64,000 bases of DNA from an uncultured Nitrospiraceae bacterium (GTDB lineage Bacteria; Nitrospirota; Thermodesulfovibrionia; Thermodesulfovibrionales; SM23-35), in the NCBI GenBank assembly GCA_963727775.1, contig CAVSHB010000001.1, positions 1,280,001 to 1,344,000 of the forward strand, given 5' to 3'. The notes under the pieces were generated by a model, which searched no databases, was not told where the DNA came from, and saw only the letters and a program-made list of their open reading frames with translations. Every line of letters begins with the position of its first letter. Position 1 is the stretch's first letter. Of this stretch, positions 1,434 to 57,886 are shown piece after piece. Position numbers and translations under genes: made by a program.

Positions 1434-2630
1434 TCACAAAGATTCCTTGCGAAGGTGGCGTGCGATTGCGGCTGCCGATCCGCCTGGAGGACGATAGAAC
1501 TGCCGCCGGATCACCTCGCGCCGCTTGTCGGCGTCAGGGTCGATGCCGCGCTCGATCCGGTCGAGAAACGATTTGAGACCCTGGATGCCGTCGGATCGTT
1601 CGACTACATCGCAGATCGCTTGACCCACTGGGTTCCACCCGGGATTGCCAGGGGCCTGCGTCAGCAGGAGCGGCTTCCCTGTGTATCCGAACTCTGCGAG
1701 AAACGATACCCCATCGGTCATCATAGCCCACGCTTGCTCGAATTGCTCGATGTGACTTGAATACGCCGGAAAACGCGTCGTCGCGGTGACGTTGCCATCG
1801 ACCGTAACGTTGTCGAGTTCCGCAGCCCTGGCGTGGAAGTGCAGTTCGTCCTGTTCGGTCCAGAGACCTTCGCTGCGAAGTTCGCTCCAGAGCAAAGGAT
1901 GCGGGCGAATGATGAATCGCATGTACGGTCGGTGCGCCGCCTCTTCGAGGACAGCCCGATATGAAGGAATGAAGGTCGAGTAACCGGCGGTCTTCTTATC
2001 TTCATCAGTCCAGTGAGTCGACCACCATGGACACCAGAGCACCGTAGGCACATCAGCGCGCCCCCGATCGATGTCCCAGTGATCGAGCGCTGGAGAGCCC
2101 GTGTGAATGATTCTTGACTTGTCAACTCCTGTGCATTCGTACTGCTGGGCACAATAGTCATTCTCCGCGTAGATGGCCTGGCATTCACGGAAGAAAGGAA
2201 GCTCGAACTGTGTCTCCGTCTCAGGGTAGATATTAAAGCCGTAGTTGATATAGTGAACCGGCAGACCGAGACGCCTGGGAGCCAGTGACTCGTGTCGCTG
2301 TTCGACATACTGCCTTGGCAAAAATACCGCCGCCGGACGAAGATCTCGGAGGCGGGTCGCCTCGGAATCTGCCGGAACAAAGCGCTCCGGCTCGAACCCG
2401 TGGGCCGCCAGCCACTCCCATACCCGGCTGGCAAGTACCAGATCGTAGTCGATCTCGGCGGAGGATGACCAGTGCCGCTCGGGAGTGACGACGATCTTTG
2501 TCGTCCAGCCAGCCTCACGAAGTGCGCAGACGACCGGCGCGACTATCTCGAAGGTTTCCATCCATTGCACCACGAAGGCCACGCAGTGTTCGGCTTCGCG
2601 TTTGAAACCACGTCTCCATTTCCATATCAT
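1434..2630 (-). CDS. CDP-glycerol glycerophosphotransferase (TagF)-like transferase; candidate CMP-phosphonate:glycan transferase
   Basis: 398 aa; TGSPALD, VLWCPWWS, IIRPHPLL and MTDGVSFLAEFGYTGKPLL resemble TagB/TagF-family motifs; last gene of the phosphonate operon. Confidence 0.65.
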   Translation of the reverse strand: MIWKWRRGFKREAEHCVAFVVQWMETFEIVAPVVCALREAGWTTKIVVTPERHWSSSAEIDYDLVLASRVWEWLAAHGFEPERFVPADSEATRLRDLRPAAVFLPRQYVEQRHESLAPRRLGLPVHYINYGFNIYPETETQFELPFFRECQAIYAENDYCAQQYECTGVDKSRIIHTGSPALDHWDIDRGRADVPTVLWCPWWSTHWTDEDKKTAGYSTFIPSYRAVLEEAAHRPYMRFIIRPHPLLWSELRSEGLWTEQDELHFHARAAELDNVTVDGNVTATTRFPAYSSHIEQFEQAWAMMTDGVSFLAEFGYTGKPLLLTQAPGNPGWNPVGQAICDVVERSDGIQGLKSFLDRIERGIDPDADKRREVIRRQFYRPPGGSAAAIARHLRKESL

Positions 2631-2639
2631 CTCGTTATC

Positions 2640-3338
2640 CTACCTTTTAACAAGAACAGCGCTGAAGCGGAATTTGCTTTGGATATAGTTCGGGATCTGC
2701 GAAGGAAAGATGCGACAGTCCACGTTGTGGGTTGCGGCAAGATCCAGAAACCAACCGCTTGGATAGTAGAGATGCTCCAGGCCTGCATAGCGTCGCTCGT
2801 ATTCATCAGCTTTGAACTTGTCGCGCCGCATCCTTTCAGCTGCGTCACGGCGACTCAGGTCGGGAATGTCGAGTACAGCGACGGCTCGCCTCGATTTGGC
2901 GATCATCAGGTCGAGCACCCGCCCGGCATAGTCAAGATCAGGGAAATAGTGGAAGACGCCGTTCGATATGACAAGATCGTAATAGGGAACCTGTGGCAGC
3001 TCTGCGGCTTCTAGGACTGCAAAGTCACCGGCAGGAAGGACCCTGCGCGTTACATCTATCAAGGCGGATGAGTAATCGCAGCCACCGATCCAAATTTCGA
3101 TCTGCTCCCGGAGCGCATACAGGAAGGCTCCTGCGCCGCAGCCGACTTCGTAGACTGAGCTGCCTGTGGTAATCCCAAGAATTTCCGATATTGTTCGAGC
3201 ATAAGATCGCATATTGTCGGGCGTGATCTGGGACACAGCGGTGTCGTAACCGTCGAGATCGAGCAGATCCCGAAGCCCAACGGTTTTGTCATCCGGCGGC
3301 TTGCGCTGGTTCCAAACCCCTTGCCAACGCGAATTCAT
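2640..3338 (-). CDS. Class I SAM-dependent methyltransferase (candidate AEP N-methyltransferase)
   Basis: 232 aa; VYEVGCGAGAF motif I, GCDYSSALI, DLVISNGVFHYF; ATGA-coupled to the upstream cytidylyltransferase. Confidence 0.8.
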   Translation of the reverse strand: MNSRWQGVWNQRKPPDDKTVGLRDLLDLDGYDTAVSQITPDNMRSYARTISEILGITTGSSVYEVGCGAGAFLYALREQIEIWIGGCDYSSALIDVTRRVLPAGDFAVLEAAELPQVPYYDLVISNGVFHYFPDLDYAGRVLDLMIAKSRRAVAVLDIPDLSRRDAAERMRRDKFKADEYERRYAGLEHLYYPSGWFLDLAATHNVDCRIFPSQIPNYIQSKFRFSAVLVKR

Positions 3339-4102
3339 GAGCCAGCCCTATGGTCTGATTTACTCTCTCGGACAAGGATGTCTGGGTATACCGTGTTTCT
3401 GACATGTAATAGATGTGCCTCATTGTCGATCTCCGACCAGGCGAGGTCATCAACGAGATGGCAGTAAACGGGGACGAGCTTGCCAACGGCTACAAGAGCG
3501 TCCTCGTATTCGAGTTTCAGCGTTGTTTTGAACACCTCATCCGCATATCGCTTCATCGCGCGGAAACAACCGAGAGACAGTTTGGTGATGCCGACCATTT
3601 CTCCGATAACCAACAAACCCAGGCGGGTGCGGTCCTTGGCCATCGCACGGAGCCGCCGATCGTCCGACACCTCGACATAGACCTCATCGCCCGATCCGGT
3701 AGGCCTGGACACGAGCATCACGTCCGATTCCGGATGGCCGAGCACTTCTACCAATGCGCGGCGCTCGTAAACGAGATCCGATTCCAAAAGCAGGAAGTCG
3801 GCTTCGATCCGTTCGATGACCAACGAAAGCGAATACATACTGCCGGACTTTGCGAAGAGGGGATTAGGAACGAGCGTTATCAGGTCAGGATAGCGCGCGG
3901 CAAGCCCCATGTAGTGATGAGGGAGGTGTCCGGTCACGATGATCATATGGCGGATTCCGCTCGCCGCCAGGCGGATCACAGACTCCTCCACGATCGGCAT
4001 CGTCCCGATTTCGATGAAACCTTTCGGCCGCTTTAACCCGGCCTCCTTCATCCGCAGGCCGCGGCCGGCGGCGAGAATGACGGCGGTATTCACGTTTTCC
4101 AT
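3335..4102 (-). CDS. LicC-like phosphocholine/phosphonate cytidylyltransferase
   Basis: 255 aa; AVILAAGRGLRM..PKG, SGSMYSL, LLESDLVYE, GSGDEVYV, GEMVGITK, WSEIDNEAHL. Confidence 0.85.
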   Translation of the reverse strand: MENVNTAVILAAGRGLRMKEAGLKRPKGFIEIGTMPIVEESVIRLAASGIRHMIIVTGHLPHHYMGLAARYPDLITLVPNPLFAKSGSMYSLSLVIERIEADFLLLESDLVYERRALVEVLGHPESDVMLVSRPTGSGDEVYVEVSDDRRLRAMAKDRTRLGLLVIGEMVGITKLSLGCFRAMKRYADEVFKTTLKLEYEDALVAVGKLVPVYCHLVDDLAWSEIDNEAHLLHVRNTVYPDILVRESKSDHRAGS

Positions 4103-5187
4103 CAGCCGCGCGCTCCGCAGAACACCGACTGAAGTATGCGGATCAGGCGGTCAAGATCGTTGTCACTGATAGCGCCCATGTTGGCGATGCGGAAGATCGT
4201 CTTCCGGAAATCCATCTGACCGGCGTAGATTACAAAGCCTCCCGCCTTCAGCTTATCGTGGATGCGTTTGTAGCTGTCGCTGGCCGGCAGCCGGAAGGCC
4301 GACATGACCGCGGAGGTATCTTTCTCCGGTAGGAGTGCTTCGACACCGAGCGTTTCCAGAGTCGAGCGCACCGTCCGAGAAATGAATCGGTATCGCTCCC
4401 GTCGGGTCCACCAGCCACCTGCTTCGGCGAATTCGTGCAACGCCTCCTGCAGTGCGAAACAGACGTGGACAGGCATGGTGAACGGCGACCATCCTGTGGT
4501 CTGTTCGGCGTAATAACGCTCCAGATCAAGATATAGTGACGTCGCGTGACCGGTGCTTCGGTCAAGCTGTTGGCGCTCGGCCAGTACGAAAGACAGCCCG
4601 GGAACACCGTGCAGGCACTTGTTTGCAGACGATGCAACAGCCAGCGGCTGCCATTCATCGAAGCGCAGTTCCTCGCCGCCAAAGCTGCTGACAGCATCGA
4701 CCAATAGACCCACGCCACGCTCCCGGCAGACGCCGGCAAGTTCATCAAGCCGGTTAAGCCTGCCTGTGGTGGTCTCGTGATGGACGATTGCCACGCACGC
4801 GATGGAGGAATCGGCGTCCAATGCCGCGACGACACGATCGCCGTCGACGGCCTCCGTCCATGCGGACCGAACGGCAATAGACGGCTTTCCCTGACGCTCC
4901 AGCATCAATGTCATCCGCTCCCCGTAGACACCGTTGGAGGCGACAAGAGTCGGACGCCCGCGTGGCGCGAAGGTGGAGAGCATCGCTTCTACGGCGGCGG
5001 TTCCGGATCCAGTGAGTAGTACGGCAGCATGGGTGCGCCTTACCTCCGGATAGACGGTCTCCAGCCGCTGCCTGATATCGAGGAACAATGCGGCGAATTC
5101 CGGCTCGCGATGGCATATATCCCCGCGCAGGAGTGCATTACGCACGCGCGGTGTCAACGTTACAGGACCCGGATTGAGGAGTATCAC
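4102..5187 (-). CDS. aepZ: 2-aminoethylphosphonate aminotransferase (PhnW/AepZ-like, PLP class V)
   Basis: 361 aa; LLNPGPV, GSGTAAVEA, NGVYGERM, HHETTTGRLN, DAVSSFG, SSANKCLHGVPG (PLP lysine). Confidence 0.9.
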   Translation of the reverse strand: MILLNPGPVTLTPRVRNALLRGDICHREPEFAALFLDIRQRLETVYPEVRRTHAAVLLTGSGTAAVEAMLSTFAPRGRPTLVASNGVYGERMTLMLERQGKPSIAVRSAWTEAVDGDRVVAALDADSSIACVAIVHHETTTGRLNRLDELAGVCRERGVGLLVDAVSSFGGEELRFDEWQPLAVASSANKCLHGVPGLSFVLAERQQLDRSTGHATSLYLDLERYYAEQTTGWSPFTMPVHVCFALQEALHEFAEAGGWWTRRERYRFISRTVRSTLETLGVEALLPEKDTSAVMSAFRLPASDSYKRIHDKLKAGGFVIYAGQMDFRKTIFRIANMGAISDNDLDRLIRILQSVFCGARG

Positions 5188-6341
5188 AAACGGTTCCCTC
5201 CGATATTGCGGACGTGGGCTCGAAATCGCTCCGTTGCCTGTGGGGGCTCCAATTTAGGACGGGGCAGGCCGGGGATCACGCCGGGTGTGATCATGGCTCG
5301 AATGAAAGTCAATCCACGCGCTCCTCCCTTGAGTAGGCGGAGAAACTCGCCCGGGTCGGCAAGGACGTGCGCGTCAGCGTAGCCGCAATTGAGGGCGATA
5401 CCAACAAGATCGACCGACCGCGAGACGGTAGACTGGCCTCCGGTCGACTCGTGCATGCTGTTGTCGAGCACGATGTGCACCAGATTGGAAGGCCGCTGAT
5501 AGCCGATCGCGGCCAATGCTCCTAAGCGCATCAGTGCAGCACCGTCACCATCGAGCACGATCACCCGTAGATCCGGGCGCTGAAGCGCCAGTCCGAGAGC
5601 GACGCTCGAAGCGCAGCCCATGGCTCCGACCAGGGAGAGCTGATGCGTACGGTCCGCCGAGGCGTAGAGTTCGCGTCCGGTATAGCCGGTCGTTGCTATC
5701 ACTACGTCGCGGTCGCCGACAGCCGCCTGGACGGCGGCAAGCATGTCGGCCCGGCTGGCGTTTATACGGTCAACTACGGGAGAGCAGGAACGGTTACCGC
5801 CAGTCGGCTTAACCTCCAAAAGCGGAGGGGCCGGTACGGGTGCCACCGAGTCTTTGCGCATGACGAGGCAATAGGGGATCCGCTCGGTCTCCATCCATGA
5901 GAGCGCGCGTCCGAAACACGGTTCGACATCCTCATCACGGATCGGGAAATACTCCCATCGGATCTCCATAAGGTCGAGAAGGCGAGTCGTGATCGATCCC
6001 ATGAGCCCGTGCTGTGGCTCATCTGGCGGTCCGCCGGGATCTCCCCGCAGCGTGGTGATCAGGAGCAAGGGTATCCGGTGGGTATTGGCAAGTGAGGTCA
6101 GCGGATTGACCGCATTTCCGAGGCCGGAGTTCTGAAACATCGCCACCGCACGGCCGCCGCCAATCTCTACCCCGGCGGCTATGGATACTGCATCGCCCTC
6201 GTTGCACGCCGGGACATAGCGCGTCGAGCTGTCGGTGATGACGTAATTGATGAAGGGCTGGAGGTAGGAGCAGGGCACGCCGCTCCACAGCACAAAGCTA
6301 TGGCGCCGAGCCGCTTCGACAAAGACCTGAGCACGGAGCAT
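5184..6341 (-). CDS. aepY: Phosphonopyruvate decarboxylase
   Basis: 385 aa; GVPCSYL, QNSGLGNAVNPLTSL, DEPQH, GAMGCASS, DGDGAALMRLG (ThDP motif), HESTGGQ. Confidence 0.93.
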   Translation of the reverse strand: MLRAQVFVEAARRHSFVLWSGVPCSYLQPFINYVITDSSTRYVPACNEGDAVSIAAGVEIGGGRAVAMFQNSGLGNAVNPLTSLANTHRIPLLLITTLRGDPGGPPDEPQHGLMGSITTRLLDLMEIRWEYFPIRDEDVEPCFGRALSWMETERIPYCLVMRKDSVAPVPAPPLLEVKPTGGNRSCSPVVDRINASRADMLAAVQAAVGDRDVVIATTGYTGRELYASADRTHQLSLVGAMGCASSVALGLALQRPDLRVIVLDGDGAALMRLGALAAIGYQRPSNLVHIVLDNSMHESTGGQSTVSRSVDLVGIALNCGYADAHVLADPGEFLRLLKGGARGLTFIRAMITPGVIPGLPRPKLEPPQATERFRAHVRNIGGNRL

Positions 6342-7957
6342 CAGAAGATCCCCGCGTTGATAACGTCATCGAGGCTATCCACGTCGCACCAATTGCCGCT
6401 GGTGTAAACGGCGCGGACCGGGGAGCCGCTGGCGATTAGCTCGTCGATGAGCCGGGGCATGGTCGCCATTCTATTGAGCGGCTTTGACAAAATGGCATCG
6501 AGAACCTTGACGATTTTGGGCAGGGCCTGCACGCCGATCCTGAGGAAGCCTATCCACTCGCCGTCGATTTCACCCGGGTCGATATCAGGAGAGATCCGCT
6601 CGATGAAGACGGGGCGGTTGTAGTGTTGGCGTGAATAGGGCAGTGAACACTTGGCATAGTCGGCGGTGCGTCCACGGTTGGCGCTTTCTCGCCATTGAGT
6701 GTCTATAGCTACGACCAGATCGCCCTCTGCCTCAATCAGGAGGTCGATGATGTATTTGCGGAAGATCACGTCGCCATAGGACACTATCACTCCGCCCTCG
6801 CTTTCGACGCGAGTCGTGATTCCCTTGCTGAGTGAGACGAGCTCGCCGGTAGTCTCATAGTCGTCATTATCGACACAGGTGACCCCGGGAATAGCGATCT
6901 TGTCTTTCTTGTACCCGCGGACAACGACAATTTCCCTGACACCTGCCATGTTGTAAGCCGATACTATGTGGTGCAAAAGCGGCGTACCGCCAATCCGGAC
7001 CATTGTTTTCGGACGGTCGCGAGTTAACTCGCCCAATTCTTCGCCGCGGCCCGCGGCGAGCACGATGGCCGCCGGTATGGTATCGGCGCGCGGCAGGTAG
7101 CGCTGTTCCGCATCCCGGAGAGCTGTCGCTCCCTGGAGGCGAAAGACATCGGCAACCGTGGCGATCTCGTCCTCGATGCGGACGACGGAACGGTCCTCCT
7201 TGATCCTACCTGCGACCTTGGCCATCGCAGCTATCGCGCCGCGGAGAAGATGGTTTGCCCATATGACTAGCGAAAAACCGTACTCCTGAAAGACCTCAGT
7301 CGGTGTCGAATAGTATTTTGTCGGGACGATAACAACAGGACTTCGATCTCCCCATTCGCGCTTGAACGTCAGCACCTCCTCGGGATCCGACAAGGCGCTG
7401 TGGATGAGGATGGCGTCGGCGCCTGCCCGATGATAGGCTTCTGCACGACGCAGTGCCTCGCTAAGCCCCCAGCCGGCAATAAAGGCCTCGACGCGGGCGA
7501 TGAGGCAGAAATCCGGGTCCGACTGGGCGTCCTTGCCGGCTTTGATCTTGCCGCAGAACTCATCAATTTCGGCGAGTGGCTGGCGGCGCCCTTCGATGAA
7601 GCTATTAGTCTTAGGGAACATCTTGTCCTCGATGCAGAGCGCTGCGATCGACCGTTGCTCAAGCTTCCGGACGAGACGCTGGACGTTGTTGAAATTGCCG
7701 AAGCCCGTGTCACCGTCCATCATGATCGGAAGGGTAGTGGCATCCGCCATGAACTCGAGGACATCGAGGACCTGTGTCCAACTTGCCTCATTGTTGTCAC
7801 GGACGCCGAGCTGGCTGGAGATCGTCAAACCGCTGCCCCAAACGCCTGGGAAACCCGCCTCCTCGACGATCTTGGCGCTCAGGCCATTGTGTGCCTCGCA
7901 GATGAATTCAAGATCTTTCGAACAAAGAAGCTGCTTGAATCGCGTGGTCTTGTTCAT
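6341..7957 (-). CDS. aepX: Phosphoenolpyruvate mutase fused to a C-terminal nucleotidyltransferase
   Basis: 538 aa; diagnostic Pep[11 protein letters not shown] (EDK-x5-NS) motif, [14 protein letters not shown]-terminal [13 protein letters not shown]-transferase domain. Confidence 0.95.
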
Positions 7958-12728: not shown

Positions 12729-13754
12729 TCACAATGACTCCCTCACTTTCTTTATATCGCAATCGACCATAATCCTTATCAACTCCGCAAATTTAGTACG
12801 CGGCTGCCAGCCAAGTGTCTCCCTTGCCTTTGAATAATCTCCCACAAGGATATCAACTTCAGCGGGCCTCACAAATTCAGGCGATATTTCGATCAGGGTC
12901 TTACCGCTCTTCCTGTCTCTTCCCTTTTCTTCAATTCCCTTTCCGTACCATAGTATATCAAATCCCGCATAACGAAAAGCAATTTCTATGAATTCCCTGA
13001 CAGAGTGCGTCTCTCCGGTTGCAATGACGTAATCATCGGGTACTGCCTGATTGAGCATAAGCCACATAGCCTCGACATATTCCGGAGCATAGCCCCAATC
13101 TCTTCTGGCATCGAGATTGCCCACTACTATTCTGTCCCGCAGGCTACCGACTATCCTCGCCACGCCGCCGGTTATCTTTCGTGTAACAAACTCAGGCCCT
13201 CTCAGTGGAGATTCGTGATTAAAAAGGATCCCGGAACATCCAAATATGCCGCGCGACTCTCTGTAGTTCACCGTTACCCAATGGCCGAACACTTTGGCTA
13301 CTCCGTACGGGTTTCTCGGATGGAACCGTGTCTTCTCATTCTGTGGTATGGACTGCACCGTGCCGAACATCTCGGATGTGGAGGCCTGGTAGAATTTTAT
13401 CTTCGCGTCCATAATCCTTATGGCCTCAAGCAGTCTCAGGACTCCCAGTCCGTCTATCTCCGAGATGAGAATGGGTTGCTGAAAAGATGTTTGAACGAAA
13501 CTCTGAGCTGCAAGGTTATATACTTCATGCGGCCTTATTTTTTCCAGTGTTTCCATTATATTACTAAGTTCCAAAAGATCCATATAGAGAATATGTACTT
13601 CCTTCTCAATGCCTAATTCCTTCAGCCTCCAGAAGTCCTGTTCCCCACCCCTCCTGTCCGTGCCGTAAACCTCGTATCCCTTTTCAAGAAGGAGCCTTGC
13701 CAGATATGACCCGTCTTGTCCCCTAATACCTGTAATGAGGGCTCTTTTCATCAT
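12729..13754 (-). CDS. gmd: GDP-mannose 4,6-dehydratase
   Basis: 341 aa; ALITGIRGQDGSYL, YNLAAQSFV, FYQASTSEMFG, PYGVAK, LFNHESPLRG, RDWGYA. Confidence 0.95.
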   Translation of the reverse strand: MMKRALITGIRGQDGSYLARLLLEKGYEVYGTDRRGGEQDFWRLKELGIEKEVHILYMDLLELSNIMETLEKIRPHEVYNLAAQSFVQTSFQQPILISEIDGLGVLRLLEAIRIMDAKIKFYQASTSEMFGTVQSIPQNEKTRFHPRNPYGVAKVFGHWVTVNYRESRGIFGCSGILFNHESPLRGPEFVTRKITGGVARIVGSLRDRIVVGNLDARRDWGYAPEYVEAMWLMLNQAVPDDYVIATGETHSVREFIEIAFRYAGFDILWYGKGIEEKGRDRKSGKTLIEISPEFVRPAEVDILVGDYSKARETLGWQPRTKFAELIRIMVDCDIKKVRESL

Positions 13755-16301: not shown

Positions 16302-16482
16302 TGTTTTTTCTTTTCATTATAAACTATTATACCAAGGTCGGAGTATAAAGTTTTCTTCGTATCGGGTCTAATGGCCTATAGATATTGAGAAGTTAAACTG
16401 AGCGGTTCAGCCTTTCTGATGTCGGGCAGCCTTGAGATTTTATGAATGGAAAACCGACTTCTTTAATCTCCAGGGTCAGGAT

Positions 16483-18330
16483 ATGTCATTCATCAAAGAA
16501 TTAAGGAAAATAACAAGTCAATCATGGTTTTCCTATTTGACCCTTTTCTTACTGCAGGCGAAGGTCCTCTGGGGTATATGGGAATATAAAGATATTGCAA
16601 ACGGAGACACTTCGAGTTACTTTCGATTCGCCTATCAATGGTTTCAAAATTATACGGTCAATATTGCCTGGTCGCCTCTTTATACGGCGTTCTATGGAAC
16701 TCTTTTGCATGTTTCGACCGATCCATTCACCGTAACGATTCTTCACCGCATCATTATAGTCTTTGCGATAACTCTAATGGTTTTGGCGTTGATGAGACAG
16801 TTGCTTCCTCACTCGGTAGCATGGATCGTGAGCGCATGGTGGGCTATTTTGCCCATCCATTTTGACTCGTTGTATGAGGTCCATCTCTTTGCAGTCATTG
16901 CGCCCTTGGCCGCATGTCTATTAGCTGCTTATAAACCGACTGCTTGGGCGCGAGGCTGTGCGCTCGCGATTATCGCCTGTTCATCTTTCTTGATTCGAAA
17001 TGAGCTTGTCGTGGCAGCTGCCGTCCTGGCTTTGCTCTATTTTTTGTGGGAGATAAGGCTCGTAAAGACCGCCAAGCTGGAAAATAGGGTAATACCACCA
17101 TTGAGACATTATCTGTATAGCTATATCATTCCTTTACTCTTGGCCGCTTTTGTTGTCATCTTTTTTTACTGGCGATCTGACGTTAAATATCCGCAGTTAA
17201 AGGATGTGTTTACCGATAAGCACACTCTGAATATGTGTCAGGTTTATGCATTTGGATACCAGCAGCGGCATCCGGAGTGGACAAAGAGTCCGTGGTTGGA
17301 ATGCCAGGAATTGATCCAGCAGCATTTTGGCTCGCCTCAGTTGTCGTTATCTGAAATGATCCTAAAAAACCCAAAAGCGGTGCTCGAAAATATGTTCTGG
17401 AATATCCGCTTGACGCCATATGGCCTGCAGGTATTGTTGTTCAATGTCACGTCCGGTTCGGCGAATCCGGATTACGCGCCAGTATTCAAATCTAACATGG
17501 CATTACTTTTCAGTTTTGTTATAGTAATACTTTTGGTCGGCGGAATAATTCTGTTTTACCGGGAAAAATCTTTCTGGTGGAATTACTGGCTAAAATCACG
17601 TTTTGTAGGATGGATGACTCTCGCCTCTCTTGCCGCAGTCTCTCCATTCATTATTCTGAGCCAGAGGCCCAGGCCATCATACCTTTTCACGACCGGCATT
17701 TTCCTGATGTCAGGCGTGGGTCTGTGCACTTTTATTGCTTTCCATCAATTATCCTTGTCAAAACGCCTATCGACCGCTATCTCTATGTTGTCAAAACGTC
17801 TATCGACTTTTGTCCCTATAATTTTGATTGCTCTATTCATTCTCATTCCAAGCTATTATCCCTACGTCAACAAAGCTAAATCTCGTCCCTTGCTCGAACT
17901 ATACCAAAGACTCGTGCCGTACAAGGAAGTGATTACGGAGCCTGAGGTTGTATTTATGGTGAATGGTTTCCCTTTTGAACTTCAGTCATATTTAGTAGCT
18001 ACGAAAGCTAAGCCCTTCGTATGGTATCGATTGGTCGATCAAATGCCGTCGACCTTACCATGTTTGGTCGATTTCGCGGAGATTTCCTTGCTCCAAATCC
18101 CAAAGAGTGCAGATAGTTGGAACATGCCGATAAATGAATATTTTGATAAGATAGGTGTGAATCTAATTTATATTGATAATAATCTCTGGACAACTCTGGA
18201 TAATCAGAGAATAAATCAGAAATTTATTAGAACACCTGAGTCAGTGGGATGGAAGATCATTGCTTATCAAAATATGTATTCAAACAAATGGATGTTGCTT
18301 CAGAGAATCAATAATGACAAAGCCCCATGA
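16483..18330 (+). CDS. Polytopic membrane protein, possible GT-C (polyprenol-phosphate-sugar-dependent) glycosyltransferase
   Basis: Multiple hydrophobic helices; acidic GDTSSY motif in the first loop; the only plus-strand gene inside the glycan cluster; start assigned to MSFIKEL. Confidence 0.55.
   Translation: MSFIKELRKITSQSWFSYLTLFLLQAKVLWGIWEYKDIANGDTSSYFRFAYQWFQNYTVNIAWSPLYTAFYGTLLHVSTDPFTVTILHRIIIVFAITLMVLALMRQLLPHSVAWIVSAWWAILPIHFDSLYEVHLFAVIAPLAACLLAAYKPTAWARGCALAIIACSSFLIRNELVVAAAVLALLYFLWEIRLVKTAKLENRVIPPLRHYLYSYIIPLLLAAFVVIFFYWRSDVKYPQLKDVFTDKHTLNMCQVYAFGYQQRHPEWTKSPWLECQELIQQHFGSPQLSLSEMILKNPKAVLENMFWNIRLTPYGLQVLLFNVTSGSANPDYAPVFKSNMALLFSFVIVILLVGGIILFYREKSFWWNYWLKSRFVGWMTLASLAAVSPFIILSQRPRPSYLFTTGIFLMSGVGLCTFIAFHQLSLSKRLSTAISMLSKRLSTFVPIILIALFILIPSYYPYVNKAKSRPLLELYQRLVPYKEVITEPEVVFMVNGFPFELQSYLVATKAKPFVWYRLVDQMPSTLPCLVDFAEISLLQIPKSADSWNMPINEYFDKIGVNLIYIDNNLWTTLDNQRINQKFIRTPESVGWKIIAYQNMYSNKWMLLQRINNDKAP
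17755..17820 (+). repeat. Imperfect 33-bp in-frame tandem duplication
   Basis: ttgtcaaaacgcctatcgaccgctatctctatg / ttgtcaaaacgtctatcgacttttgtccctata encoding LSKRLSTAISM / LSKRLSTFVPI. Confidence 0.8.
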
Positions 18331-18344
18331 TTTCCCTAATCCAA

Positions 18345-20587
18345 TCAATACCTCACAAGCTTAATTTTATACAATAAATTATAGAACAGATGCTTAACCA
18401 AATATTTCCTTACATTCTTGTCGACTTCCTCCCGCGATACGACTCGTCGATGACACCTCTGGCGGATACGATCCATTTCTTGTTGTCCTGCTGAGATATT
18501 TGCCGAAGTCTTCTGGAGCTGATGCACTCTGAATGCGCCGAGAAAACGAGGGAGCCTGGCAAATCTGGCGCCGGCGTCACGGAATCGAAGTATCAAATCC
18601 CAGTCCATGGCAAACAGGAAACTTTCATCGATATACCCTCCGACCTTATCCCAGATTCTCCTCCTCCAGAAGAGCGTTTCCTGCGGCACATAATCCGCCC
18701 AGGATAATATCTCATCGTTATGCGGCGGGAGAACCCAACGTCCAATCTCCCGGTCAAGCAAGTCTATTAGAACCCTGTGCCCATAGACGACATCAACATC
18801 AGGGTGCGTCTCAAAAAACCCCGCCACATAGTGCAGGGTGCCCGGAAGGAGCAAATCATCAGAATTCAGATATGCCATAATTTCACCTGTTGTATGCTTG
18901 AACCCAATGTTGATGGCATTCGCCTGGCCCTTGTCCTCAGCTAACTCACAGTGGGAAAGCGATTCCCGATACCTTTCCAGTATTTCCCTTGTACCGTCAA
19001 CAGAGTCACCATCCTGGACAACATACTCCAGTTTCGGATAGTGTTGACTCAGCACACTTATTACAGTGCGTTCAATAAAATCTGCCTGATTAAAGGATGG
19101 CGTAACCATAGAGATAACGGGGAAAGAATCCAATATCTTTGTAAAAGTATAATGCTTCGGGACACTCATGGGTTTGGGCTTATGTTGATAGAGAACACCG
19201 AGACGCGGCAAAAATAAATTCGGCAACAGGTTTCCTAAGAAACTATTGAACCTGCGTAAGAAAACTGTTTGAACGCGTTTTAAAATATTGTAGACCCCGA
19301 TTTTGTCGGAAATAATAAAAATGATTGTCTTAAATGCAAAAGGCAAACTGACAAAAGATTCGATCCTTTCCTGTTCCGACATAAAACGGGAATAAATCTC
19401 ATCAATCGTATACTGAACGTTCCTTGCGCTATCACTCGAATCTGGAGCAAAATGCCAGTATAGCTTATTAAGACTCCAACTTCTCCGGTATGATTCAAAG
19501 TCATCAAAAAGGGCAATTATTTCACGAAGACAATCTTTAGTTTCCCTTGTTTTTGAAAAAGCGTATCCTTTTTCAATCAAGGGTTTCCTCAAGTTTTCGT
19601 CAAAATAGAGTCTATGAATTTTTTCTGCGAGATCTTTCTCGTTTCTTGGATCAAAAAGGATGGCTGCATCCTTGAGATGTTCATGCGAACCCAAGATCGA
19701 GGCAGCTAATACGGGGCATCCGAATGCAAAGGCCTCAAGGGGAGGGAAATTATCAGGTCCAAAAAATGAAGGATAGACAAGGGCGAAAGCATTTTTATAG
19801 AGAGAAGCCAGTACATGACGGTCAACAAAGCCTTTGAAGATTATCTTCTTTGTCAACCCTAATTTCACCGCAACCTCTTTCACATGACCGAGATTTCCCA
19901 TATCTGAACCGGTAAAGACAAGATGAAAATCGTGAGAATATTTATCGACAAGAATTCTTAGGGCATGGAGTAAAACTATATGATTTTTATGGGGCCAGAA
20001 TTGAGCAGGATAGAAAAGAAAAGGCTTTGGGACATCATTAAAAAGTGTATCACTTATTTTCTTGTAATCGAAAACCCAATTCGGGGTTGGGAAAGAGATT
20101 ACTTTAATCCTTTCGTTTAATACGCGGTAAAAATCGTGTATTTCTTCTTTCCTTTCTCTGTGCCGGTAATAACACAAGCTGCTCTGGGAAGGAATTCCCT
20201 GTAGTTGGTTTCTCTTTTATCCCAGGTCCACCCGGTTTGGCTGACTTCAGGGAAAAAAGGCTGTTTTCTGTGCTCTAGGTCCAAAACTGTGCAGATGATC
20301 GGGAGATGGACGTGCTCGAAAGGAGGCACCATGAACCAGCAGATATCTATCTTGTGTTTCAGCAACTGAAAGGACAAATCAGTAATATTGTCCTGACGAG
20401 TTACCGTTTTGCCCAACGATATAAAATTCCAGCGCTCATTTCCAAGTGTAAATCCCTCACCATAGTGAAAAAAATAAAAATCGTGTTTCCCGTTATATTT
20501 GGTAAGTTCTTCAACAAGGTCCTCCTGATAAGTATATCCTCCCCCGAATTCCTTAGGCTGATATCCTAAACAGACGCCTATCCTCAT
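18345..20587 (-). pseudogene. GT4-GT2 bifunctional glycosyltransferase split by a single-base frameshift near 20148-20150
   Basis: ORF 20117..20587 ends ...VITGTEKG and ORF 18345..20177 continues KEEIHDFY...; adding one A joins them. GT4 motif YPAQFWPHKNH...PPLEAFAFGCPV and GT2 motif VTPSFNQ...YLNSDD are both present. Confidence 0.75.
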
Positions 20588-20643: not shown

Positions 20644-22044
20644 TCACTGATTTCCCTGCAATCTTCCGACAAACAAGATTCGGTCGGGCTCGAACCGCAA
20701 TTCAGCAACGCAATTAAAATGCTTTTCAAATGCTTTTCTCAAAGACCATCTGTCACACCATTCAGATTGCGGCACTGAAGCGTCGAGCCTATTACAGGGT
20801 TTTGAAATCATAAATTCGACAAAAGCATAATCGTTTGTATAACTCGCCAGACTCTTCAATATACTCTCCAGGGGATATTGCTGCAAATAACGCTCCAAAG
20901 GTACCGCAGCCACTGCCTGTGCTTTAAGCCGTTCGGCAGGTTCTGGATCTGCTAAATCCACAACAGCCGGAGTAATCGGAAAGCTCCTGTTCTTTGCGAA
21001 TGTATATGCCTTCTCGATCGCAGATGGGTCGTTATCAATACAAACCACTTGTTTAACTGACGTCTGTATCAACAACCTTTCCAAGAACTGAACGTTGGGG
21101 CCTCCAAATTGAACGACAGAAGAAATGTTTTCCGACTCAATCAGGCGGAGTATTTCGTCAAGATAAGGGGAAGAAGACACTTCGCCGCGTGCTCCGTGGA
21201 TATTGTGATGACAAGACCGTGCGCTGCCAGTTGGTCCAAAAGTTATCTGCTCTATTTTTCTTGAGAGCGATCGAGAGGTTGTATGCCTGAACAGCCACGC
21301 CCTTTTCCTCATAAACATGAGCAATTTTCCATTCAGGCGAGAATGCGCTCGTCTTATTTCTTCATTCTCACAAAAGGGTAAGACCATCGCAGAGAAATAC
21401 AAGGAGATCAGTTTTCTCAATGCAGCAGGATTAACCCGTCTCAAGAGTCCCCATTTCCAGAGCAGATAGCTTTTATGCAGCCGGACAGCAAGCGTATTAG
21501 CGCCCTGTTCATCTCCAAGCGAGTACACCTTGAGGGGATAGTAGTACAACTGCAGAAATTCAGGGTAGCACCTAAAACAATCCCTGTTTTCTTTTGTTTC
21601 AACTTCACCTCTTATAAAACTCCCGATATCGATATAAATAGGACGAGAACCGTCAAACAGTATATTCCCAGGATGACAATCTTTTAAATAATATCCATGG
21701 TCAGCAGCTATCATTGCTATTCTTAGCACTAAAAGGGCAGTATCCTTTAACATGGAGAATGTCCATTCGCGGCAATATGTCACACGATCAATTTTTCTGT
21801 GCTCGATCACCAGATCATACCCATCAATCTCATAATCCGTAATCCATGAATCAATGAAAAAACCTTCCCCCATAAGTTCCTTAACCATTTCAGAAGCAAG
21901 AAGCTCTTTTACATGTTCTGAATATTCTTTATGTATCGCTCTAAATACATGTCCCTTCCAAAAGAATATTTTACCAACATTATCATATGTCCATTCACAG
22001 AATTTTACTTCCTGAATGGCGATGCGCCTTTTCGTCTTCAACAT
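20644..22044 (-). CDS. Kinase-like plus degenerate methyltransferase-like protein (NoeA-like architecture)
   Basis: EWTFSMLKDTAL..LKDCHPGNILFDGSRPIYIDIGSF resembles a kinase catalytic loop and DFG-like motif; C-terminal Rossmann-like VVCIDND..AIEKAY, YAFVEF. Confidence 0.6.
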   Translation of the reverse strand: MLKTKRRIAIQEVKFCEWTYDNVGKIFFWKGHVFRAIHKEYSEHVKELLASEMVKELMGEGFFIDSWITDYEIDGYDLVIEHRKIDRVTYCREWTFSMLKDTALLVLRIAMIAADHGYYLKDCHPGNILFDGSRPIYIDIGSFIRGEVETKENRDCFRCYPEFLQLYYYPLKVYSLGDEQGANTLAVRLHKSYLLWKWGLLRRVNPAALRKLISLYFSAMVLPFCENEEIRRAHSRLNGKLLMFMRKRAWLFRHTTSRSLSRKIEQITFGPTGSARSCHHNIHGARGEVSSSPYLDEILRLIESENISSVVQFGGPNVQFLERLLIQTSVKQVVCIDNDPSAIEKAYTFAKNRSFPITPAVVDLADPEPAERLKAQAVAAVPLERYLQQYPLESILKSLASYTNDYAFVEFMISKPCNRLDASVPQSEWCDRWSLRKAFEKHFNCVAELRFEPDRILFVGRLQGNQ

Positions 22045-22805
22045 TTCCGAGCCACAGCCACAATATGCCATATATTTTCAGTAATGTTTTCACATGTTGA
22101 AAACCCGGCAAACCATTTTATGGGAACAAACCCATTGCCTTCCAGGATAGCCGCCATTTCCTGTACGAGGAAGTATCGCACCACCTGCGTTTCTTTGAGC
22201 TGGGAATATGCGCCGTCATTGTTCAGCTCGAATATGCTGTACGAAACTTCACATGCCTGCCGGGAATGGTCAAGCGTCGTTTCTGATATCCTCAGGACTT
22301 CACCTTTTTCCGTTATCCATCGCCTGACCCGAACGGGCTCATAGTGACGGAGTATCGCTCCGGCATTCCAGAATTCGAACACTAATAAACCATCGGCATG
22401 TAAATGATGATGAATCCCTTGAAGGGTTTGTGTAAGTGCCTCATTAGTCACAACATGCCCTATGGAGTCGAATAGACAGATTGCCGCATCAAAGGGTCCT
22501 TTCTTTAAGTTCAGTGAACGCATATCCTGATTATAAAACTCCACTTGAGAAGACAGCCTTCCAGCCTTTTGGAGTGCGACGGCCAGCATGGAATTCGAAT
22601 AATCTGTCGCGGCAATCTCATAGCCCAACTTCTCAAGCTCTATGGCATGTGATCCTGTTCCGCATGCCAATTCAAGAACTGAACAGGTTGGCCGCTTACC
22701 GAATTCCTGCAGGCAGTAATGGACAAATGCCGCCTCTTCAGCATATGGTTTATCCTTATAGAAGATGTCATAGAGCTCTGCATAGCGGCCGCCATAGGAG
22801 TTCAT
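22038..22805 (-). CDS. SAM methyltransferase resembling amino-sugar N,N-dimethyltransferases (TylM1/DesVI-like)
   Basis: 255 aa; YAELYDIFY..KPYAEEA, VLELACGTGSH, DMRSL..FDAAICLFDSIGHV. Confidence 0.8.
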   Translation of the reverse strand: MNSYGGRYAELYDIFYKDKPYAEEAAFVHYCLQEFGKRPTCSVLELACGTGSHAIELEKLGYEIAATDYSNSMLAVALQKAGRLSSQVEFYNQDMRSLNLKKGPFDAAICLFDSIGHVVTNEALTQTLQGIHHHLHADGLLVFEFWNAGAILRHYEPVRVRRWITEKGEVLRISETTLDHSRQACEVSYSIFELNNDGAYSQLKETQVVRYFLVQEMAAILEGNGFVPIKWFAGFSTCENITENIWHIVAVARKC

Positions 22806-25239: not shown

Positions 25240-26196
25240 TCATATCAGCCCGGAGAGGTCTTTTATTTTTACATACGCACCACTTTCTATGTCAACAACA
25301 ACCATATCTTTTATCGCCGCAAATCGTTTTATACCGGTAACATACGTCAACTCTCCCCTGGAATCCCGTGATTCTCTAAACCTGGATTCAACATATCCCT
25401 CTGCCACTGTCAACGGTTTCAGCCGGCCAATCTTGTCTTTGCGGATGAAATACGCATTATTGCCGCTGCTGTTGCATCCGATGAAAAAATAGCCCTTTTT
25501 TTCTGCCAGCAAAGATAATGCCTTTAGCGAGCATCCCCAATAAAGGTTTGAGCAGTGGGCTTTTGTCCTGTTAAAGGCTGCGCTGTAAGGAATCGTCACC
25601 GCAAGGTTCGGACCAAAAACACTATTGAATTCGATGATAACAACTACAGGAGTCACTACATTAATGCTTTCCCATATCCAGAAATCATTTCCATCAACGT
25701 CTATGCTCAAGATACCGACATCGCCGCTAAATCCGCTATCAGAAATGATACTGTTGATATTTTCCTTCGTTATAAACTTTTCAACCGCGGTCAACTCATG
25801 CTTCCAGCAGATTTCATGTTTTCTTATAAATTCAATATTCTCCCTGCTCGCATCAATAACAAGTCCCCGCCAATTATTATTCATGAGGAGAAATCTGGTA
25901 TTGGACTCCATATAATTCTCCACGCCGAATTCGATAAATGAATGATGAGGAATATCAATAGCATGTATCAGGTATTGAATAATGCCGTCATCCCCGAACT
26001 GCGAAAAGACCTTAAATTCGGTGTCGTGAATATTCTCAAAAACTACCTGCTGCTTTATATTATGGATGCAGCCCTGTGCAGCGAGGATCTTGAGTTCTTC
26101 AATATTTCTTAATATCATAGCGTCATTTCTCAATACAATATCGTTTCTTCCAGTCTTTTTCTTGTGATTAAAGATAGAACGCAGATAATTCATCAT
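25240..26196 (-). CDS. FkbM-like putative methyltransferase
   Basis: FSQFGDDGII, FIEFGVENYMESNT, LSIDVDGNDFWIW, GCSLKAL..GY.FIG..GNNAYF. Confidence 0.65.
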   Translation of the reverse strand: MMNYLRSIFNHKKKTGRNDIVLRNDAMILRNIEELKILAAQGCIHNIKQQVVFENIHDTEFKVFSQFGDDGIIQYLIHAIDIPHHSFIEFGVENYMESNTRFLLMNNNWRGLVIDASRENIEFIRKHEICWKHELTAVEKFITKENINSIISDSGFSGDVGILSIDVDGNDFWIWESINVVTPVVVIIEFNSVFGPNLAVTIPYSAAFNRTKAHCSNLYWGCSLKALSLLAEKKGYFFIGCNSSGNNAYFIRKDKIGRLKPLTVAEGYVESRFRESRDSRGELTYVTGIKRFAAIKDMVVVDIESGAYVKIKDLSGLI

Positions 26197-27917
26197 TCCT
26201 TGCACGAAAAGATAAATCCTTTAAAAAATGAGGGGTAATCAACCTTATCAAATGAATCAAACTCCTCTATGAGCTCATACCTCCGGGAAAAAAAGTCTTT
26301 GAATTCTTCAAGGCTGAAAAACCGATACGGAAAGCTTGCATCATAGATGTCGGGAGGAACCTTCTGGACGGTTATACAGTTCCTCCCGTCCGCTGAAAAC
26401 GGCGTTCGGTCAATAAGTATATATTTAACAGTAAAATCGAAAATCCTGTTCAACAGTTCATAAGGCTTTTCGATATATTCGAGAACACCGGAAAAGAGGA
26501 CGACATCGGGTACATTCCCTTTCCTTATGCAATCTTCCATGCTGAAATGAAATTTAAGATTTTCGCCTTCAAATAATTCTTTCCCGCATTTAACAAAACG
26601 CTCCTGTTCCACTACATTCCATGTCAGGGCTTTCAGATGCTTCAAGAATTTCCTGTTCTGGTAATAGGAAGTTCCCAGCGACCCGCCAAAGTCTATCAAG
26701 TTCAACCTGTTGTCATTCATGGAAGCGATCCATAACAGCCCGCTCAGGGTCGGCCAGGAATACTGGATTTTATCAAACAGGACAGAATCTCTCTCATAAA
26801 CGGTTTCACCGTTTTTCACCTTTAACGCCGCGTTCTTGACTTTTTCAAAAATAACCTCCGAGTTGTAACCCGTACTCTGTTTCCTGGCTTCTTCCCATGA
26901 GGAATAATCACCCCCAAAACCGCGCTTCGCGGCAGGCGGTCCGGCTTGAGTCAAAGGCGAACTCATTGAATTAAGGTTGCGAAGCATTCTTTGATATATT
27001 TTCTTCAATGTTATGGAGAATGAAACATGCCGGCAAGATTTCGAATCTATTAAAAAGGTATGCCTGCTGTCGTATTCATCCGCTTCTTTATCTTGCAACA
27101 TGAACGTGGGATGATTTATCCTTTCAAGGCTGAAAGTCTTTACGTTGGCGAGTTTATTATCTGCATCCTTTATATGGGAAGCATCTTCATGACCACAACC
27201 TATGTTTGAAACAAGATTGACATTAGGGGTAATGCAAAGACCATTCTGGCGCCATATAGCGAATAGCCACTGGTAATCCCAAGTATCAATTTTGCCTTCG
27301 TAAGTCAGCTCAAATATCCTAAGCCAATATTCCTGTACCAAAGTATCCTCGAAAACATTCCTGATCTGATTCTGATCCCTAAAATTCGGGAAATCAGCCA
27401 TCTTGAAATCGTAGTGTCTCCAGGCCCTGCGCCAGCCTGCCCATCCCCAGGTCTGGGGATACTTACTGAAATAATAACTTCCGTCTCCCCGTTTATTGTC
27501 ATCTTGAAAATTATCGCCACCAATCATCATTATTCTTTCATCATCCCGATATTTCTCCAGAAGATCCTGGCAGAACCAGAAAAAGCTTTGATTGGGTAGC
27601 GTGTCATCCTCAAGGATAATACCTTCGGTTTCATTTTCAAAAAGCCAGTTCGTCGCCGTGGACGCGCTCACTCCACATCCCAGATTTTTCTCCCTGAAAA
27701 GCAATTTGACTTCGCAGTCCCAGTCCACTTGTTTGACAACAGTCCTGGTAGCTTCACATTTTTCTTCGTCGCCTTTCACATTCCTTGGGCCGTCGGCAGC
27801 AACGTATAACTTGACGGGTTTTGCCTTACATATTTCGTTAAACACTCGTTGGGTTGTATCCGGGCGATTAAAAATAATTAACAGAACCGGAGCAGTTAAC
27901 GTCTTTTCTCTTTTCAT
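26193..27917 (-). CDS. Nucleotide-diphospho-sugar transferase (GT-A) fused to a putative methyltransferase (LIC12133/TIGR04325-like)
   Basis: 574 aa; N-terminal IFNRPD, AADGPR, IILEDD, WGWAGW, TWDYQW, NLVSNIG; C-terminal YERDSVLF, IDFGGSLGTSYYQ, ILIDRTP. Confidence 0.8.
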   Translation of the reverse strand: MKREKTLTAPVLLIIFNRPDTTQRVFNEICKAKPVKLYVAADGPRNVKGDEEKCEATRTVVKQVDWDCEVKLLFREKNLGCGVSASTATNWLFENETEGIILEDDTLPNQSFFWFCQDLLEKYRDDERIMMIGGDNFQDDNKRGDGSYYFSKYPQTWGWAGWRRAWRHYDFKMADFPNFRDQNQIRNVFEDTLVQEYWLRIFELTYEGKIDTWDYQWLFAIWRQNGLCITPNVNLVSNIGCGHEDASHIKDADNKLANVKTFSLERINHPTFMLQDKEADEYDSRHTFLIDSKSCRHVSFSITLKKIYQRMLRNLNSMSSPLTQAGPPAAKRGFGGDYSSWEEARKQSTGYNSEVIFEKVKNAALKVKNGETVYERDSVLFDKIQYSWPTLSGLLWIASMNDNRLNLIDFGGSLGTSYYQNRKFLKHLKALTWNVVEQERFVKCGKELFEGENLKFHFSMEDCIRKGNVPDVVLFSGVLEYIEKPYELLNRIFDFTVKYILIDRTPFSADGRNCITVQKVPPDIYDASFPYRFFSLEEFKDFFSRRYELIEEFDSFDKVDYPSFFKGFIFSCKE

Positions 27918-28780: not shown

Positions 28781-28794
28781 AATGGGTTCGCCCT

Positions 28795-54926: not shown

Positions 54927-55116
54927 GGACTGAATGCTTAATGAAAGCAGGATTGAACAATTATGCAGAGTGATTGCGGATTATCCAAAGTCATATCCGG
55001 CGCTGCCGATCCCAAATTAATTTGCGTCTATAAATAGCCTGTCCCCTTTACCATTAATCAATCGTTTGTATCTCTGTAAATGTCAATGGTCAAGTCCGCC
55101 CCATCATCTACTGGCA

Positions 55117-57771: not shown

Positions 57772-57886
57772 TTCCCCATTTTTCGCTCCACCCAGTCCAG
57801 TCAAGCCCCTCTATTTGCTATTTTGTCCAAAGTCCTTATCCATTCTGGCCAGCGCAAGGAATGCCTGTGAAATTTATAATTGATAC

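Follow-up and report, generated by a model that had tools for sequence, protein, structure and literature searches.

The question raised by this locus is what kind of decoration is made by a compact set of genes in an uncultured Nitrospiraceae bacterium (assembly GCA_963727775.1), and onto what it is transferred. The window analysed here is a stretch of 64,000 nucleotides of contig CAVSHB010000001.1 (positions 1,280,001 to 1,344,000), and the genes in question form a cassette at positions 1434-7957 of its minus strand. A preliminary description had drawn attention to three of them, a cytidylyltransferase (3335-4102), a methyltransferase (2640-3338) and a putative TagF-like transferase (1434-2630), as a pathway for 'phosphonocholine'. 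All three open reading frames (ORFs) are indeed present on the minus strand in this order; the unit is larger, however, and comprises six genes, beginning with those for synthesis of 2-aminoethylphosphonate (AEP), which carries a carbon-phosphorus (C-P) bond. As a feature it is both real and coherent, and likely represents a phosphonate counterpart of the logic of Fta flagellin modification, joined to a phosphonate cluster of the Pnt type. Surface decoration is the role of most bacterial phosphonate clusters.

The proposed route would start from phosphoenolpyruvate (PEP), converted through phosphonopyruvate and phosphonoacetaldehyde to AEP by PEP mutase (Ppm), phosphonopyruvate decarboxylase (Ppd) and AEP aminotransferase (AEPT), all of which were tested for family membership. 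A PntC-type enzyme, assigned by its residues, would combine AEP with cytidine triphosphate (CTP) to cytidine monophosphate (CMP)-AEP, and the methyltransferase would put one to three N-methyl groups on the amine of CMP-AEP. Finally, on the 1434-2630 protein, which has a GT-B fold, a sugar hydroxyl would attack the phosphonate phosphorus and release CMP. Judging from its position, the acceptor would probably be the glycan encoded next door and exported by an ATP-binding cassette (ABC) system. Synthesis of AEP and CMP-AEP by the cassette is very likely, based on curated family matches and conserved catalytic residues. Transfer of a phosphonyl group by the GT-B protein is quite probable in view of its fold, motifs and context, and N-methylation by 2640-3338 is fairly probable, as suggested by gene fusions and context. 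The complete route, comprising CMP-AEP synthesis, N-methylation of CMP-AEP and GT-B transfer to a sugar hydroxyl, is held with slightly better than even confidence. If it is right in outline, it is still doubtful that methylation would proceed to three methyls. The cassette holds just one candidate enzyme for each of the two late steps, methylation and transfer.

Cassette genes and their origin

The six ORFs overlap or abut. In 5' to 3' direction they encode Ppm with a fused C-terminal nucleotidyltransferase domain of the NTP_transf_3 family (6341-7957), Ppd (5184-6341), AEPT (4102-5187), a cytidylyltransferase of 255 residues with an NTP_transf_3 domain (3335-4102), a class I S-adenosylmethionine (SAM) methyltransferase of 232 residues from an unnamed family, predicted to act on CMP-AEP (2640-3338), and the GT-B protein of 398 residues, a predicted CMP-releasing phosphonyl transferase (1434-2630). 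The three enzymes of AEP synthesis all exceed curated NCBIfam cut-offs: Ppm scored 383.8 bits with TIGR02320 (cut-off 319.55), Ppd 377.1 bits with TIGR03297 (cut-off 312.5) and AEPT 364.1 bits with TIGR03301 (cut-off 360.8). The Ppm translation also carries EDKxxxxxNS, which is described as the Ppm motif (PMC6697681).

The cytidylyltransferase had been called LicC-like. By sequence, the enzyme is PntC-type, not LicC-type. Its best solved relative is PntC of Treponema denticola (Tde-PntC; 6PD1, E 2.8e-48), and LicC of Streptococcus pneumoniae (1JYK) was far weaker (E 4.4e-9). In the alignment, R17, K27 and K156 correspond to catalytic R15, K25 and K153 of Tde-PntC and pocket residues E107 and E200 to its E104 and E196, so that Glu occupies both sites and the Asp pair of the LicC pocket (D105, D192) is not found. 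As described by Rice et al. (PMC6697681), Glu104 and Glu196 are tied to a smaller pocket discriminating against phosphocholine, whereas LicC has aspartates, and the activity of Tde-PntC on phosphocholine is below measurable; the PntC of Atopobium rimae is closer to LicC yet prefers AEP, making the pocket residues an imperfect guide. CMP-AEP is the predicted product of 3335-4102, and trimethylated AEP is disfavoured as its substrate. Since the enzyme keeps both pocket glutamates that are associated with exclusion of choline-sized substrates, methylation probably comes after CMP activation, for which FtaC (see below) provides a precedent.

The nucleotidyltransferase domain fused to Ppm (6341-7087) is probably not the AEP-activating enzyme, because the alignment places Glu instead of the catalytic Arg, and Gly and Met at the positions of E104 and E196, respectively. 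The fused domains of loci L016, L041 and L037 are likewise devoid of this Arg and of the Glu at the first pocket position, making four of four aligned domains, and a separate nucleotidyltransferase gene is located downstream of the Ppm fusion wherever the contig reaches far enough. Such fused domains may be pseudo-enzymes or take another substrate.

The cassette was likely acquired horizontally. This is indicated by the contrast in GC content between the six cassette genes (0.55-0.62; 0.60-0.71 at third codon positions) and four flanking host genes (0.41-0.47 and 0.42-0.51, respectively; genome mean 0.45), by zero Ppm matches among 40 relatives, and by zero matches of the GT-B gene among 250 other genomes of the host's phylum. 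As the gene order recurs in L016 and L012 with 51-87% identity, the arrangement is not due to chance; statements on L012 and L041 depend on the unpublished genome G301, and L016 shows the order independently. The left edge of the cassette (1250-1489) is covered with zero mismatches by a public contig of 240 bases, which perhaps originates from the same sample. At the right edge, a public contig stops 28 bases past the Ppm start and was not counted as a bridge; this search of public DNA covered 10 of 30 bins. Promoter and terminator scans gave hits at the level of shuffled sequences (4 vs 3.4 and 1 vs 5.1, respectively), and no convincing terminal repeats were found around the cassette.

The lack of a LicD-like gene, noted earlier, extends to the whole host genome (G000, 96.8% complete), in which there were zero matches to PF04991 and no tblastn match with two LicD-family queries. 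Zero matches to PF04464, the family of TagF, were found anywhere in this genome.

The GT-B protein and the methyltransferase

The predicted model of 1434-2630 has a GT-B fold (predicted local distance difference test score, pLDDT, 89.2), and its structural neighbours are epimerases, TagF, Bcs3 and TarL. In the VIA fold search, TagF (3L7I) was matched with Z 21.7 and a root-mean-square deviation of 3.7 over 312 aligned residues, 8A0C with Z 21.2 and TarL with Z 21.0; the epimerase-like CapG followed at Z 19.6, and classical glycosyltransferases were listed at 18.3 or less. When a 130-sequence profile of the protein was compared with eight PF04464 domains in HHalign, it reached 90.5% in local and 95.5% in global mode, as opposed to 0.2% for four GT4 proteins of the window used as a control. 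A profile made from 30 close homologues collected 2,929 relatives, 1,949 of them with E below 1e-10. Among 146 newly listed distant relatives, 70 were scanned, with five families shown per protein: PF04464 was present in at least 31 of these, in 26 over the cut-off, and Epimerase_2 in a single one, weak and below the cut-off. The protein also matches the RefSeq 'CDP-glycerol glycerophosphotransferase family protein' (CDP, cytidine diphosphate) with E 1e-8, and no Pfam match was obtained to PF02350, the family of uridine diphosphate N-acetylglucosamine (UDP-GlcNAc) 2-epimerases.

Two residues, Y130 and H244, are conserved without exception in the 130 sequences. In HHalign, H244 aligns with the histidine of the RxH motif of PF04464 domains, which we take to be the second catalytic His of TagF (H584), and the segments GxP(R/K)xD, (Y/W)AP, RxH and TDxxS are aligned between the protein and the TagF-like family. 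Y130 occurs in the context N/P-Y-G and, by the strand order in the model, would likely be equivalent to H444, the first catalytic His of TagF. The invariant Tyr130 thus apparently replaces this histidine, and Cps7A, a proven glycerol-phosphate transferase, is described as having Tyr at the same position. Judging from the model and the profiles, 1434-2630 would be a distant TagF relative that works like a TagF-type transferase; strict membership of the family goes beyond the evidence. The earlier TagF-like label was therefore sustained by fold, HHalign and distant relatives in the structure and hidden Markov model checks, and weakened by the lack of an own Pfam match and by Tyr in place of the first His.

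AEPT and PntC genes were present upstream of the GT-B gene in three of 17 close loci (L016, L012 and L001). The complete six-gene order is found in L016, whereas the contig of L012 ends at AEPT, its Ppm and Ppd genes being located on a separate contig. In L001, a C-terminal remnant (positions 960-1160, E 8e-9) is all that is left of the methyltransferase between intact PntC and GT-B genes, which reflects either natural methylation loss or an assembly artefact. The GT-B gene of L015 is located head-to-head with a gene for a nucleotidyltransferase-pyridoxal phosphate (PLP) enzyme, and in genome G305, Ppm, Ppd and methyltransferase genes occur on a contig separate from the GT-B gene. Both GT-B genes of G302 (L015:1880-3060 and L016:10001-11174) are split by frameshifts, possibly due to sequencing errors. 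Actinobacterial homologues, including those of G303 and G304 (L017:10016-12499, L013, L006-L008 and L014), have a fused C-terminal extension of about 430 residues, which gave no match in Pfam or NCBIfam; L014 has a GC content of 67%, so its label as Bifidobacterium breve may be wrong.

Cytidylyltransferase genes were adjacent to distant GT-B relatives at three of five loci (Vibrio alfacsensis, Entomospira and G395, the last one presumably TagD-like), and none was adjacent in the Rahnella copy or in L059. On the V. alfacsensis plasmid (L063:7256-12831), the GT-B relative is preceded by genes for a PEP-utilising enzyme, a gamma-glutamyl hydrolase and a phosphocholine-cytidylyltransferase-family protein, a trio which we assume to resemble Cj1416-1418. 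The latter are described as making CDP-phosphoramidate. The GT-B family looks like a group of transferases for varied cytidine-activated donors, not for phosphonates alone. The V. alfacsensis module adjoins an exosortase/PEP-CTERM polysaccharide locus, and on the Rahnella aceris plasmid (L018:11155-12723), the distant GT-B relative occurs singly in a prophage, at its tail-fibre end, the usual site of surface-conversion cargo.

The methyltransferase, correctly recognized in the preliminary description as a SAM enzyme downstream of the cytidylyltransferase, has a class I fold (Pfam; model pLDDT 95.8). It has 202 near-length homologues, and its family displays a conserved signature outside the SAM motif. 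Among 15 longer relatives, eight are fusions of a nucleotidyltransferase, a PLP enzyme and the methyltransferase (P0320-P0325, P0327 and P0328), and two are direct fusions of a PntC-type enzyme and the methyltransferase, with both pocket glutamates and 35-38% identity to PntC of the window; one further relative contains a CTP_transf_like domain, and the remaining four are unrelated or weak. The PLP part of the fusions matched best the NCBIfam model of CobD threonine-phosphate decarboxylase, below its cut-off; a serine-phosphate decarboxylase is known from Campylobacter jejuni. Methyltransferase domains on distant GT-B relatives were also considered as fusion evidence and rejected: the methyltransferase profile matched 14 of the 146 relatives in the SAM core only (E 3e-12 to 9e-4), as expected of generic class I enzymes.

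Eleven other methyltransferase loci were compared, with partial matches (L025, L026, L031, L034/L044, L035 and L036) excluded from the count; the excluded L044 contained no partner genes. A cytidylyltransferase-type gene was located beside the methyltransferase in seven of the 11 loci, LicD was present at five and the GT-B protein at two, and Ppm clusters were found at L012, L016 and L037. A fusion of nucleotidyltransferase and CobD-like PLP enzyme was accompanied by the methyltransferase and LicD in L019:13100-16562 (a plasmid of Gloeothece PCC 7822; WP_013325566, WP_013325565 and WP_013325564), L038:8990-12460 and L046:5190-10314. On a viral contig of 430 kb (L023:7983-10966), the methyltransferase occurs together with LicD, a nucleotidyltransferase and an AEPT-like PLP enzyme that scores below the TIGR03301 cut-off, with a GT2 gene close by, and in L039 it occurs with LicD at the contig end. 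What these loci have in common is a cytidylylated aminoethyl group, for which LicD and the GT-B protein are interchangeable last steps. From the fusions and the LicD/GT-B neighbourhood, a CMP-activated aminoethyl substrate can be inferred for the methyltransferase. In the host's phylum, it was found in one of 300 other genomes, standing alone; no additional family member was detected by tblastn of phages or among 150 family relatives of G844. The gene also stands alone in viral contigs L022:1371-2060 and L024:8001-8684, and in the former its neighbour is a gene of the thymidylate synthase family, possibly a hint at DNA modification.

The combination of the nucleotidyltransferase-CobD-like fusion, methyltransferase and LicD may constitute a pathway that supplies CDP-choline for decorating glycans and does not depend on choline. 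Much more tentatively, the methyltransferase might found a widespread family of CDP-ethanolamine/CMP-AEP N-methyltransferases which build choline-type head groups on a cytidine carrier. If so, it would yield a hydrolysis-resistant phosphonocholine coat in combination with Ppm genes and the GT-B transferase, and, in combination with the fusion and LicD (the Gloeothece plasmid, G553, G844 and the eight triple fusions), a route from phosphoserine to CDP-choline independent of choline uptake. The latter is not among the routes surveyed in the accessible text of PMC10434233.

Alternative routes

Several observations weigh against the proposed route, and those concerning its last step are as follows. 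The 1434-2630 protein has no match of its own in Pfam, NCBIfam or PDB sequences (phmmer and profile searches) and none over the gathering cut-off of PF04464. The WHG motif, which harbours the first catalytic His of TagF, was not found in it, and the global HHalign alignment sets the QTxHG motif of TagF about 25 residues upstream of Y130, with low confidence. UDP-GlcNAc 2-epimerases rank first in Foldseek, and epimerases are on top of the wide VIA search (Z 22.0-23.2). Moreover, no cytidylyltransferase was found in the available DNA at 13 of the 17 close loci (of these 13, six comprise less than 5 kb of DNA and five nearly duplicate a single 827-residue fusion), and the GT-B carriers G303 and G304, assemblies of unstated completeness, contain no Ppm over the cut-off and no methyltransferase of the family assembly-wide. 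In five of 17 loci, the gene that immediately follows the GT-B gene encodes a GNAT protein, and in four a DegT gene is located within 10 kb; these recurring neighbours keep a nucleotide-sugar role alive: 1434-2630 might be an ordinary glycosyltransferase for an N-acylated amino sugar produced by DegT and GNAT, or an epimerase-like enzyme, the phosphonate being transferred by another enzyme. We regard this as improbable, as the cassette came without the GNAT gene (no match in the host genome) and offers neither another transferase candidate nor LicD; the rarity of Epimerase_2 relative to PF04464 among distant relatives, the low score of the GT4 control and the tyrosine of Cps7A also speak against it. 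The earlier idea that a TagF-related protein stands in for LicD accordingly keeps its place as a plausible inference, tempered by the many homologues without phosphonate genes nearby.

As for the methyltransferase, it is conceivable, though unlikely, that the GT-B protein transfers the phosphonate while methylation takes place on free AEP, on the phosphonate oxygen (giving a methyl ester) or on the finished glycan. Methylation of the phosphonate oxygen is comparable to the chemistry of DhpI or of O-methyl phosphoramidate. The top matches in fold searches with 2640-3338 are tied across N-, O- and C-methyltransferases, with DhpI (Z 17.1) level with N-methyltransferases, and an Atlas search with homologue P0084 returned generic names only, with no substrate class. 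DfmB and DfmC of dehydrofosmidomycin synthesis are described as acting on free AEP, and one distant GT-B relative follows the apparent CDP-phosphoramidate trio. Furthermore, L037 contains the methyltransferase, Ppm and Ppd with no AEPT match, no partner genes accompany the methyltransferase in three of the 11 loci (L027, L022 and L024), and the remnant in L001 suggests that methylation may be dispensable. On the other hand, the recurring order of nucleotidyltransferase, PLP enzyme and methyltransferase implies an amine on a cytidylylated intermediate, and FtaC requires the CDP moiety. The strict sense of 'phosphonocholine', an N,N,N-trimethylated product mimicking phosphocholine on a glycan through a C-P bond, is a subset of the favoured explanation, so that the confidences given for these readings overlap, and it appears rather unlikely. 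It draws on LicD beside the same methyltransferase family in five of 11 loci, on plant phosphoethanolamine N-methyltransferases ranking second and third in the profile search of PDB sequences (SAM-binding core only, profile positions 47-125), and on trimethyl-AEP being made by DfmB and/or DfmC. Yet LicD-family proteins occur in AEP clusters too and are no proof of choline, the AEP-type pocket of PntC would allow trimethylation only after activation, and the characterised analogues stop at a mono-methyl product (FtaC) and a di-methyl form (the glycan of Pseudomonas aeruginosa PAO1). Thus, the title of the preliminary description names just one option; its proposal that AEP or CMP-AEP is N-methylated agrees with the apparent tie of the methyltransferase to cytidylylated aminoethyl donors, with trimethylation before activation being disfavoured. 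Finally, the cassette could make a small secreted phosphonate, or decorate a protein-linked glycan or a lipid instead of the neighbouring polysaccharide, as CMP intermediates occur in dehydrofosmidomycin synthesis and FtaD works on a flagellin O-glycan. This we consider very unlikely, given that the cassette lies among GT2, GT4 and ABC-export genes, that it is likewise placed among glycosyltransferase genes in L012 and L016, and that the cassette contains no gene for a CMP-removing hydrolase, an oxygenase or a CDP-alcohol transferase.

The route through N-methylated CMP-AEP and its transfer by the GT-B protein is thus the one we prefer. The cassette supplies single candidates for the methylation and transfer steps after CMP-AEP, and both could be tested with two small proteins, neither of which has obvious membrane segments, and enzymatically made CMP-AEP. 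If confirmed, it would also name a methyltransferase family that may give bacteria de novo phosphocholine-type glycan decoration.

Neighbouring genes and comparison with known systems

Next to the cassette, a host polysaccharide locus (8178-29580) was recognized by ORFs and Pfam matches. It encodes glycosyltransferases of families GT2 and GT4, methyltransferases, a DegT aminotransferase, and the ATPase and permease of an ABC system, and is likely the source of the acceptor glycan; an additional GT4 gene is located on the other side (167-1285). The gene at 12729-13754 is presumably a GDP-mannose dehydratase, from the appearance of its sequence, and 28025-29580 is taken to be Wzm/Wzt, with the ABC_tran domain alone tested. 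One GT4-GT2 gene (18345-20587) appears to be interrupted by a frameshift, as its sequence falls into two ORFs that overlap (20117-20587 and 18345-20177), and three sizeable ORFs of the locus, 16432-18330 on the plus strand and 20644-22071 and 25240-26205 on the minus strand, had no Pfam match at E 0.1. Elsewhere in the window, we presume an ATPase-like ORF beside an ORF of 895 residues resembling TPR/CHAT proteins (53604-57804), and an IS630-like transposase gene in two overlapping frames (58594-59671).

Within the literature covered, from which most subscription papers were absent, we found no CMP-AEP methyltransferase, no TagF-like phosphonyl transferase and no methyltransferase-LicD route from CDP-ethanolamine. 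N-methyl-AEP itself is reported to be common in nature, and catabolic enzymes for it are known (PMC10590968). The closest likeness is to type A flagellin modification of Clostridioides difficile, where FtaB-FtaC-FtaD correspond to cd0242-cd0244, with a counterpart in P. aeruginosa PAO1 (pa1088-pa1091), whose glycan carries the di-methyl form (bioRxiv 10.64898/2026.02.12.704994; PMC10714395; PMC11833859). According to the accessible text of the first of these, FtaC methylates CDP-threonine, not free threonine or phosphothreonine, and yields only the mono-methyl product in vitro, while the methylated donor is favoured about 100-fold by FtaD, the acceptor being flagellin O-GlcNAc; its Table S1 lists partial fta clusters, which could include phosphonate-linked ones. 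The order of cytidylyltransferase, class I SAM methyltransferase and TagF-like transferase is common to both systems. FtaD (CD0244) is described as resembling both TagF and UDP-GlcNAc 2-epimerase (bioRxiv 10.64898/2026.02.12.704994; PMC10714395; PMC11833859), as does 1434-2630. In the Fta system, a CDP conjugate is N-methylated first and then transferred to a sugar hydroxyl, and the same sequence of steps is proposed for the cassette. By this analogy, based on gene order and described fold, the cassette is likely a phosphonate version of the FtaB-FtaC-FtaD logic. It differs in the donor, which in Fta is CDP-threonine, a phosphate ester derived from FtaA, and in the acceptor, flagellin as opposed to an exported polysaccharide. 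Since Ppm, Ppd and AEPT, not the FtaA phosphotransferase, are encoded upstream, and polysaccharide genes, not a flagellin-linked locus, flank the cassette, it would work like Fta and is not a member of FtaABCD.

The upstream part of the cassette resembles the Pnt pathway of T. denticola and A. rimae, with which it shares the Ppm-nucleotidyltransferase fusion, Ppd, AEPT and a PntC with Tde-type residues (PMC6697681). The clusters of that pathway are, however, described with LicD-like phosphotransferases or glycosyltransferases, the words 'methyltransferase' and 'TagF' are absent from the main text of that paper, and the steps after Ppm and CMP-AEP are called enigmatic there. In common with Lic-1 (LicABCD; PMC10434233), a small zwitterion would be activated by CTP and transferred to a glycan; Lic-1 is described as importing choline and using LicD, whereas the donor of the cassette would be made de novo with a C-P bond, in a genome with no LicD match. 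The bacterial Ppm-Ppd-AEPT cluster of dehydrofosmidomycin offers in DfmB/DfmC SAM-dependent N-methylation of AEP up to trimethyl-AEP (PMC12006828, PMC9296572). Compared by description, these enzymes methylate free AEP in a pathway that leads to a secreted antibiotic, with CMP added later and no glycan transfer. With the TagF-like family (TagF, TarL, Bcs3-type polymerases and Cps7A; PF04464), the GT-B protein shares the fold (Z 21.0-21.7), and it differs in falling below the Pfam threshold, in having no WHG and in Tyr130 apparently placed at the first His position. The donors characterised for this family are CDP-polyols, UDP-sugars and CDP-N-methylthreonine, none of them a CMP-phosphonate. The donor proposed here had been called unusual for TagF enzymes. 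An N-methylated CDP-amine has a precedent in FtaD, so only the C-P donor would be new, and if the proposed route is correct, TagF-like enzymes would extend to it.

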